NCBI RefSeq assembly: GCF_003334815.1
Contig: NZ_QOWO01000001.1
DNA from: Escherichia coli
Lineage (GTDB): Bacteria > Pseudomonadota > Gammaproteobacteria > Enterobacterales > Enterobacteriaceae
Length of the DNA stretch: 64,000 nt
Direction: 5' to 3' (one strand)
The notes under the pieces are model-generated. The model was not told the origin of the DNA. It saw only the letters and a list, made by a program, of their open reading frames with translations, and searched no databases. This document shows, piece by piece, positions 39,961 through 41,001 of the stretch. Each line of letters opens with the position of its first letter. The first letter of the stretch is position 1. The position numbers and the translations under genes are program-made.

Positions 39961-40845
39961 TCAGGAGAGATATTTATCGAACCATTTCAGTGTCCTTTGC
40001 CAGGCAAGATCGGCGGCAGATTTGTCATAACGGGGCGTGGAATCATTATGGAATCCGTGATTAACCCCCGGATAGATATACGCCTCATAAACCTTATTAT
40101 TGGCTTTCAACGCCGCCTCGTAAGCAGGCCAGCCCTCGTTGATTCGGGTGTCCAGTTCCGCGAAGTGGAGTAGTAAAGGCGCTTCAATCTTCGCCACATC
40201 GGCAGTGGGTGCCTGACGACCATAAAACGGCACCGCGCAGGCCAGTTCCGGATACGCGACAGCCGCCGCGTTCGATACGCCACCGCCATAGCAAAATCCG
40301 GTAATACCCACTTTGCCTGTCGCTTGCGGATAGCGTTGCATAAACTCAATTGCGGCAAAGAAATCATTCATCAGTTTGTTGGATCAACCTGCTGTTGCAG
40401 CTCACGACCTTTATCATCATTTCCCGGATAACCTCCAACGGAACTTAAGCCGTCAGGTGCCAGGGCGATATACCCCGCCTTCGCCACTCGCCGTGCCACA
40501 TCTTCGATATACGGATTCAGTCCACGATTCTCATGCACCACCACTACGGCTGGCGTTTTGCCGCTCATCTTTGCGGGCTTCACCAGATAACCCCGCACCT
40601 CGCCGTGACCATTTGGCGAAGGATACGTGATGTACTCAGCAACAATTTCCGGGTCGGTAAACTCTACCTGAGTCGCCAGCGCATAATTTGGCTTGAGCAA
40701 ATCAAACAACGCTAATGCCGTCATCCCGCCTACCGCACTTCGCCGCAAGGTTGAGGAACTCACGTTTCGAGATTTTCCCGTGAGCGTAATAGTCATAGTA
40801 ATCCAGCAACTCTTGTGGGAAATCTTTGGCGGTTAAACGCGGCAT
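39961..40845 (-). pseudogene. yghX: Dienelactone-hydrolase-family gene disrupted by frameshifts
   Basis: Three consecutive minus-strand ORFs in different frames (40702-40890, 40371-40796, 39961-40371) that together span one hydrolase-length protein. Confidence 0.65.
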
Positions 40846-41001
40846 CGTTGCACTCCTCAGTTGGTGTTTTTTTAAGCAAAGCATAAGCACGTGTTTTTGC
40901 CCAGTTTTTCGTCACTCTGTGAGCCAGACTACGGGATACGCGCTGGCGAATCGCTAAACTAGAAACATTGTTTCGAAATTGAACGGTGGAAAGGAGAGGT
41001 C

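Follow-up and report, generated by a model that had tools for sequence, protein, structure and literature searches.

The minus strand of the window, by which we mean the whole 64,000-nucleotide stretch of Escherichia coli DNA that was analysed (contig NZ_QOWO01000001.1 of assembly GCF_003334815.1), carries at 39961-40845 a frameshifted yghX, a gene for a dienelactone-type hydrolase of the YghX family. It lies between hybO and yghW on one side and gpr and yqhA on the other, in the same gene order as in K-12 MG1655 (Table 1). A megablast search with 39850-41000 found a match in all 5426 complete E. coli genomes, annotated as 'yghX: YghX family hydrolase' throughout, and in FDAARGOS_1337, whose sequence here is identical to that of the window, the RefSeq label is 'yghX, YghX family hydrolase, frameshifted'. 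In alignment the window allele measures 885 nt from start to stop codon, as against 888 nt for the intact alleles.

Table 1. Features of the yghX region, in window coordinates
Feature	Position	Strand	Basis
hybO	38248-39366	minus	
yghW	39555-39842	minus	
yghX pseudogene, start to stop codon	39961..40845	minus	ORFs, alignments; FDAARGOS_1337 RefSeq annotation over exactly equivalent span
Segment C, native codons 158-295 plus stop, frame 0	39961..40377	minus	frame-0 translation
TGATG, stop of the segment B frame overlapping internal Met160, the first ATG of segment C	40369..40373	minus	ORFs share base 40371
Lesion 2, 1-bp deletion, codon Thr157 (ACC)	40378..40378	minus	alignment to intact alleles
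Segment B, native codons 38-157 (120 codons), second frame, Asn-stop at end	40377..40736	minus	translation and dienelactone hydrolase alignment
Lesion 1, 2-bp deletion (TA or AT, placement ambiguous)	40736..40738	minus	alignment to intact alleles
Segment A, native codons 1-36, frame 0	40738..40845	minus	frame-0 translation; PF23678 match to residues 1-36
yqhI ORF, 36 native YghX codons, 11 out-of-frame codons and TGA	40702..40845	minus	translation; K-12 b4755 at equivalent coordinates
5' leader, non-coding	40846..40890	minus	sequence and intact CDS starts in O157:H7, KL53 and E. coli B
Shine-Dalgarno GAGGAG	40853-40858	minus	7 nt upstream of ATG 40845
gpr	41002-42042	plus	
yqhA	42082-42606	minus	

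Three successive open reading frame pieces cover the minus strand of 39961-40890, at 40702-40890, 40371-40796 and 39961-40371, and it was over this span that the first-pass annotation placed a frameshifted yghX. The longest piece in the native frame has 138 codons, an uninterrupted frame of about 295 codons is absent, and the window gene is a pseudogene member of the YghX family rather than a functional one. Of the two boundaries originally given, the end at 39961 is right but the start is not: the true start codon is the ATG at 40845, the equivalent of which opens the intact coding sequence in O157:H7, KL53 and E. coli B, while the mechanically called frame runs past it through the leader up to a GTG further upstream, at 40890.

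An Rfam scan of both strands of 39300-41100 gave zero matches at E values up to 1. In a promoter and terminator scan of 39500-41100 the minus strand had no sigma-70-like site upstream of yghX, in a search where the numbers of matches equalled the shuffle expectation and which is uninformative on a yghX promoter. A preprint describing 'yghX overlapping modA' (10.1101/2020.11.18.388249) is unrelated to the yghX locus of the window and was set aside.

The product of the intact gene

With three bases restored, the window encodes a 295-aa protein that is identical to the YghX of KL53 and differs from that of O157:H7 at two residues (V69F and S135N). This repaired translation matches the NCBIfam model NF041440, 'YghX family hydrolase', over the whole profile (1-292 of 292) with 587.3 bits and an E value of 4.6e-177, the curated cut-off being 460 bits, and residues 84-294 match the entire Pfam DLH model (PF01738, 1-217 of 217) at 3.3e-48, so that chance is excluded as the source of the joined reading. 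The yghX product, 295 aa long, is classed from sequence as a predicted alpha/beta hydrolase and belongs to the dienelactone-hydrolase family. A structure is available in PDB 4ZV9, deposited as 'Uncharacterized protein', which corresponds to YghX residues 59-294.

YghX was also compared with the dienelactone hydrolase ClcD of Pseudomonas (PDB 1DIN and variants), of the same fold family, with an aligned Cys, corresponding Asp and His motifs and a similar HE..G motif; the two are only distantly related (E about 5e-15), and YghX has an additional conserved N-terminal stretch of 58 residues that ClcD lacks. The predicted nucleophile is Cys186, in GFCYGG, which stands opposite position 123 of 4U2C, a ClcD variant; Asp233 (in ELD) and His264 (in NHGF) were assigned by motif position, opposite QD and GHSF in the same alignment. 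The triad of ClcD itself is C123, D171 and H202 in the numbering of 1DIN. The predicted Cys186-Asp233-His264 triad of YghX lies entirely on segment C, and the HENRG motif with Glu106, equivalent to Glu36 of the Pseudomonas dienelactone hydrolase, lies on segment B. There is no indication that dienelactones are hydrolysed by YghX.

The YghX leader comprises S-K-R-E-F-L-N, a hydrophobic stretch and ALA followed by TQ, with Lys-Arg where the Tat motif S/T-R-R-x-F-L-K has Arg-Arg, and the 4ZV9 construct begins at about residue 57-59, consistent with the predicted cleavage site. It looks like an export signal, perhaps a Lys-Arg variant of the Tat type. As a separate observation, the N-terminal 58 residues (window 40672-40845, repaired) are near-invariant across seven genera, unusually conserved for a signal peptide.

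Two deletions and the YqhI stump

The lesions were mapped by aligning the window gene with those of K-12 MG1655, FDAARGOS_1337, an O9:H10 strain, HS, KL53 and O157:H7. Lesion 1 falls directly after codon 36, where the window has AAG joined to TGC and the intact alleles have AAGTATGC (in wider context GCGAAGTGCGG in the window and GCGAAGTATGCGG in the intact alleles), and it destroys the codon of Tyr37. Lesion 2 leaves a single gene-strand C at 40378 where the intact alleles have CC (in wider context GATCCAACAAACTG and GATCCAACCAAACTG, respectively), and is also the origin of the TGATG overlap.

Since a loss of two bases and a loss of one sum to three, codons 1-36 and 158-295 share one frame, positions 40845 and 40371 both being 0 mod 3, and the displacement is confined to the 120 codons between them. 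The coding sequence had been described at first as split across three reading frames; there are indeed three pieces, but they occupy two frames only. Frame 0 stops 11 codons past lesion 1, at a TGA at 40702-40704, and meets many further stops before lesion 2. Because it is closed between the lesions, no full-length enzyme is possible and lesion 2 rescues nothing.

The 47-aa product of 40702-40845 is identical to K-12 YqhI (b4755), and the YqhI sequence published in PMC6001520 is the product of the window ORF. Pfam PF23678, 'YqhI-like', matches residues 1-36 of the repaired YghX (8e-20), precisely the residues encoded before lesion 1, and the family is actually the N-terminus of full-length YghX hydrolases. 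YqhI, being YghX residues 1-36 followed by an 11-residue frameshift tail, can exist only in carriers of lesion 1, about 23% of E. coli, and studies that treat it as the product of a dedicated small-protein gene should allow for this restriction, a point of modest value that follows from its origin.

Expression of YqhI is documented for K-12 only, by epitope tagging and ribosome profiling (PMC6001520, PMC11429745). It was detected there by chromosomal epitope tagging (PMC6001520) and is reported to be induced under low Mg2+, and strains deleted for yqhI grow poorly at low Mg2+, a defect not complemented by YqhI from a plasmid (PMC11429745). With its 5' stump translated in K-12, the yghX locus is not transcriptionally dead. 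The name 'yghX' is absent from the main text of PMC11429745, and in PMC6001520 yghX_2 figures solely as a neighbour and the word 'pseudogene' does not occur. There is a slim chance that the remnants are not inert, either through a role of its own acquired by YqhI in the carriers of lesion 1 or through the TGATG letting the triad-bearing C-terminal half be translated; if so, either role could account for a yqhI deletion phenotype that YqhI alone does not complement.

Distribution, order and origin of the lesions

Both lesions are base for base the same in K-12 MG1655, in position and in size, and the comparison with an intact homologue and with K-12 that had been proposed at the outset therefore resolves the frame changes into a 2-bp and a 1-bp deletion at the K-12 positions. 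K-12 yghX (b4658) and yqhI (b4755) together have the same indels, the same 47-aa YqhI ORF and the same neighbours as the window, and the first-pass statement that the gene is a pseudogene in K-12 agrees with the MG1655 annotation, where b4658 is listed as such. Over alignments of 981 and 1101 nt the sole difference between the window and MG1655 is a SNP at 40893. This position, 48 nt upstream of the yghX/yqhI start codon and inside the divergent yghX-gpr intergenic region, is C in the window, HS, KL53 and O157:H7 and T in K-12, the T being private to K-12 among the strains compared. The annotations differ: in K-12 GenBank the pseudogene feature starts at an internal ATG (equivalent to window 40796) and yqhI is a separate CDS, whereas PGAP gives other strains a single frameshifted CDS over 39961-40845.

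Allele frequencies were counted in the 5426 complete genomes with 40-nt probes centred on each lesion, to which the alternative allele is unable to seed a megablast match. Lesion 1 was present in 1251 of these genomes (23%) and lesion 2 in 1198 (22%), while about 77% are free of both. E. coli HS and the O9:H10 strain Res13-Lact-PEB21-38-A carry lesion 1 only, in an allele of 886 nt that has the SNP background and the 'frameshifted' label in common with the window; this allele keeps CC at codon 157 and is out of frame all the way after codon 36, compared with 120 codons in the window. A synthetic haplotype with lesion 2 only had no exact match among the genomes searched, its best matches being intact alleles at 99.8%, whereas the fully repaired window sequence had at least 30 exact matches over 461 nt. 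The counts, the sampled genomes and the failed search with the chimera together suggest that all genomes with lesion 2 also carry lesion 1. Decay has gone a third step in strain J6 (NZ_CP195973.1), where the same two-lesion allele is further interrupted by an IS1A.

Intact YghX, with a 295-aa open frame of 888 nt at the same locus, is encoded by KL53, E. coli B and O157:H7 (WP_001137768.1, WP_001424373.1 and WP_001302757.1), and Citrobacter, Pseudescherichia, Enterobacter, Kosakonia and Leclercia have intact orthologues of 294-298 aa that are 85-92% identical; the intact state is thus ancestral for the species and the lesions are derived. The suggestion that the lesions might be ancestral consequently holds in one sense, that they are shared by descent with K-12, but this ancestry is that of a sub-lineage and not of the species, most of which lacks both. 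The KL53 gene, annotated as intact, equals that of the window over about 1.1 kb save for the two indels, and since no SNP has been gained relative to an extant intact allele both deletions must be recent. The O157:H7 gene differs from that of the window by 14 substitutions, 12 of them at third codon positions and two changing an amino acid, a pattern that fits purifying selection on yghX until shortly before the lesions.

The existence of HS and the O9:H10 strain with lesion 1 only, together with the failure to find a lesion-2-only haplotype, sets the order as intact, then the 2-bp deletion, then both. From the strain names among the matches (K-12, HS, E. coli C and NCTC86), we take the lesion carriers to lie within part of phylogroup A; the loss of yghX falls inside what is presumably this group, after its split from the E. 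coli B lineage. In the sequence of events that we propose, lesion 1 would have broken the frame in one phylogroup A lineage and left the 47-aa stump that is YqhI in K-12, and lesion 2 would then have arisen in the sub-branch holding K-12 and the window strain, returning the last 138 codons to the original frame while the 120 codons between the lesions stayed out of it. Enzyme function would have been lost in this process, probably by neutral drift.

The pseudogene is real and shared with K-12, and three other readings have to be set against this. The first-pass annotation had named sequencing error at homopolymer runs as what would refute its reading, and errors of sequencing or assembly in a gene intact in the real organism might be considered for lesion 2, where one base is lost from a run of CC, a context of occasional mistakes in long-read assemblies. 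The contexts, however, are GTATG for lesion 1, a loss of two bases outside any homopolymer, and AACCAAA for lesion 2, with no long homopolymer at either, and the exact alleles recur across 1198-1251 complete genomes assembled independently, the MG1655 reference and many derivatives of K-12 among them, with a structured distribution (intact, lesion 1 only, or both, the lesion-2-only type not being found) unlike that of random errors; the proposed refutation fails, and error is extremely improbable. That the same two lesions arose independently in the window strain and in K-12 has nothing specific in its favour, and the identity of both in position and size, the flanking haplotype identical but for the K-12-private SNP at 40893, and 99.98% identity of the window to MG1655 over 39.5 kb make the probability of such convergence vanishingly small.

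The third reading is a functional enzyme that is still made, whether by programmed ribosomal frameshifting at both lesions or as a split protein whose fragments B and C would be translated separately, C by way of the TGATG, and then assemble. In its favour, the TGATG at 40369-40373 is a classic termination-reinitiation arrangement, the complete predicted catalytic triad is on fragment C, K-12 transcribes the locus and translates its 5' end, and the low-Mg2+ defect of the yqhI deletion is not complemented by plasmid-borne YqhI (PMC11429745). For recoding, ribosomes would have to shift by +1 at AAG-U-GCG and by -1 at ACA-AAC-UGA. The sites, read directly as GCG AAG UGC GGU and CCA ACA AAC UGA, contain no slippery motif by the criteria used (X XXY YYZ for -1, and a prfB-like shifty stop or a rare codon for +1), and neither required shift fits X XXY YYZ or a prfB-like site; nor is the frameshift conserved, the ORF being uninterrupted in most E. 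coli and in all the other genera sampled. As to a split enzyme, fragment B lacks a native start codon, the sole upstream ATG (40796) adding out-of-frame residues, ATG 40371 has no evident ribosome-binding site before it, and fragments B and C are both without the N-terminal leader and each without half of the fold. Lesions that are young and confined to one lineage, with a one-lesion intermediate, are the signature of decay and not of a selected recoding device, and we regard a functional product as very unlikely. The yghX of the window is almost certainly the known decayed gene of the K-12 type, with a deletion of two bases after codon 36 and then of one base in codon 157 in one lineage of E. 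coli.

The significance of this is small. The yghX pseudogene is already known and ordinary, with nothing new in the lesions themselves; it is a textbook pseudogene of K-12 and a routinely used neutral integration site, and in strain engineering it is used for integration as a pseudogene (PMC7677707). Of modest value is the clean decay series (intact, one deletion, both deletions) on an otherwise identical haplotype, with a frequency for each step.

Elsewhere in the window

Between yghX and yghW, at 39855-39880, lies a perfect palindrome with 11-bp arms, TCGCTATATAT-TGTC-ATATATAGCGA, and inside it is GACAAT (39864-39869, minus strand), the -10 hexamer of the yghW promoter that PMC3946193 lists as TTGCCT-17-GACAAT. 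The terminator scan flagged the palindrome on the plus strand only, and it may be an operator.

From 24445 to 64000 the window is 99.98% identical to MG1655. At 16055-24445 it has 8.4 kb in place of which MG1655 has an IS5 between yghO and yghQ, an insertion missing from the window strain. Among its products in strain 300709 are a fatty acyl-AMP ligase, an epimerase/dehydratase, an acyl carrier protein and a serine palmitoyltransferase, together with LptF/LptG paralogues and a member of the YtfJ family. The left end of the window also differs from K-12. The strain is, by these comparisons, evidently a close relative of K-12 but not K-12 itself, which is of some use for its annotation.

A deletion junction is present at 2876-2903, with a 28-bp stretch shared at the junction; about 8.46 kb are missing relative to strain 300709 and about 5.2 kb relative to K-12. 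Compared with 300709, the lost segment begins inside gspL and runs through gspK, gspJ, gspI, remnants of gspH/gspD, gspC, gspS2 and pppA into sslE (yghJ), so that the type II secretion (beta)/SslE system is inactivated in the window strain. The window opens, at 1-81, with 77-81 bases that correspond to an IS5 end (98.8% to K-12 IS5), and the sequence directly after it lies, in strain 300709, inside a gene for an EAL-domain protein, which an IS5 copy at the edge of the window thus appears to interrupt.
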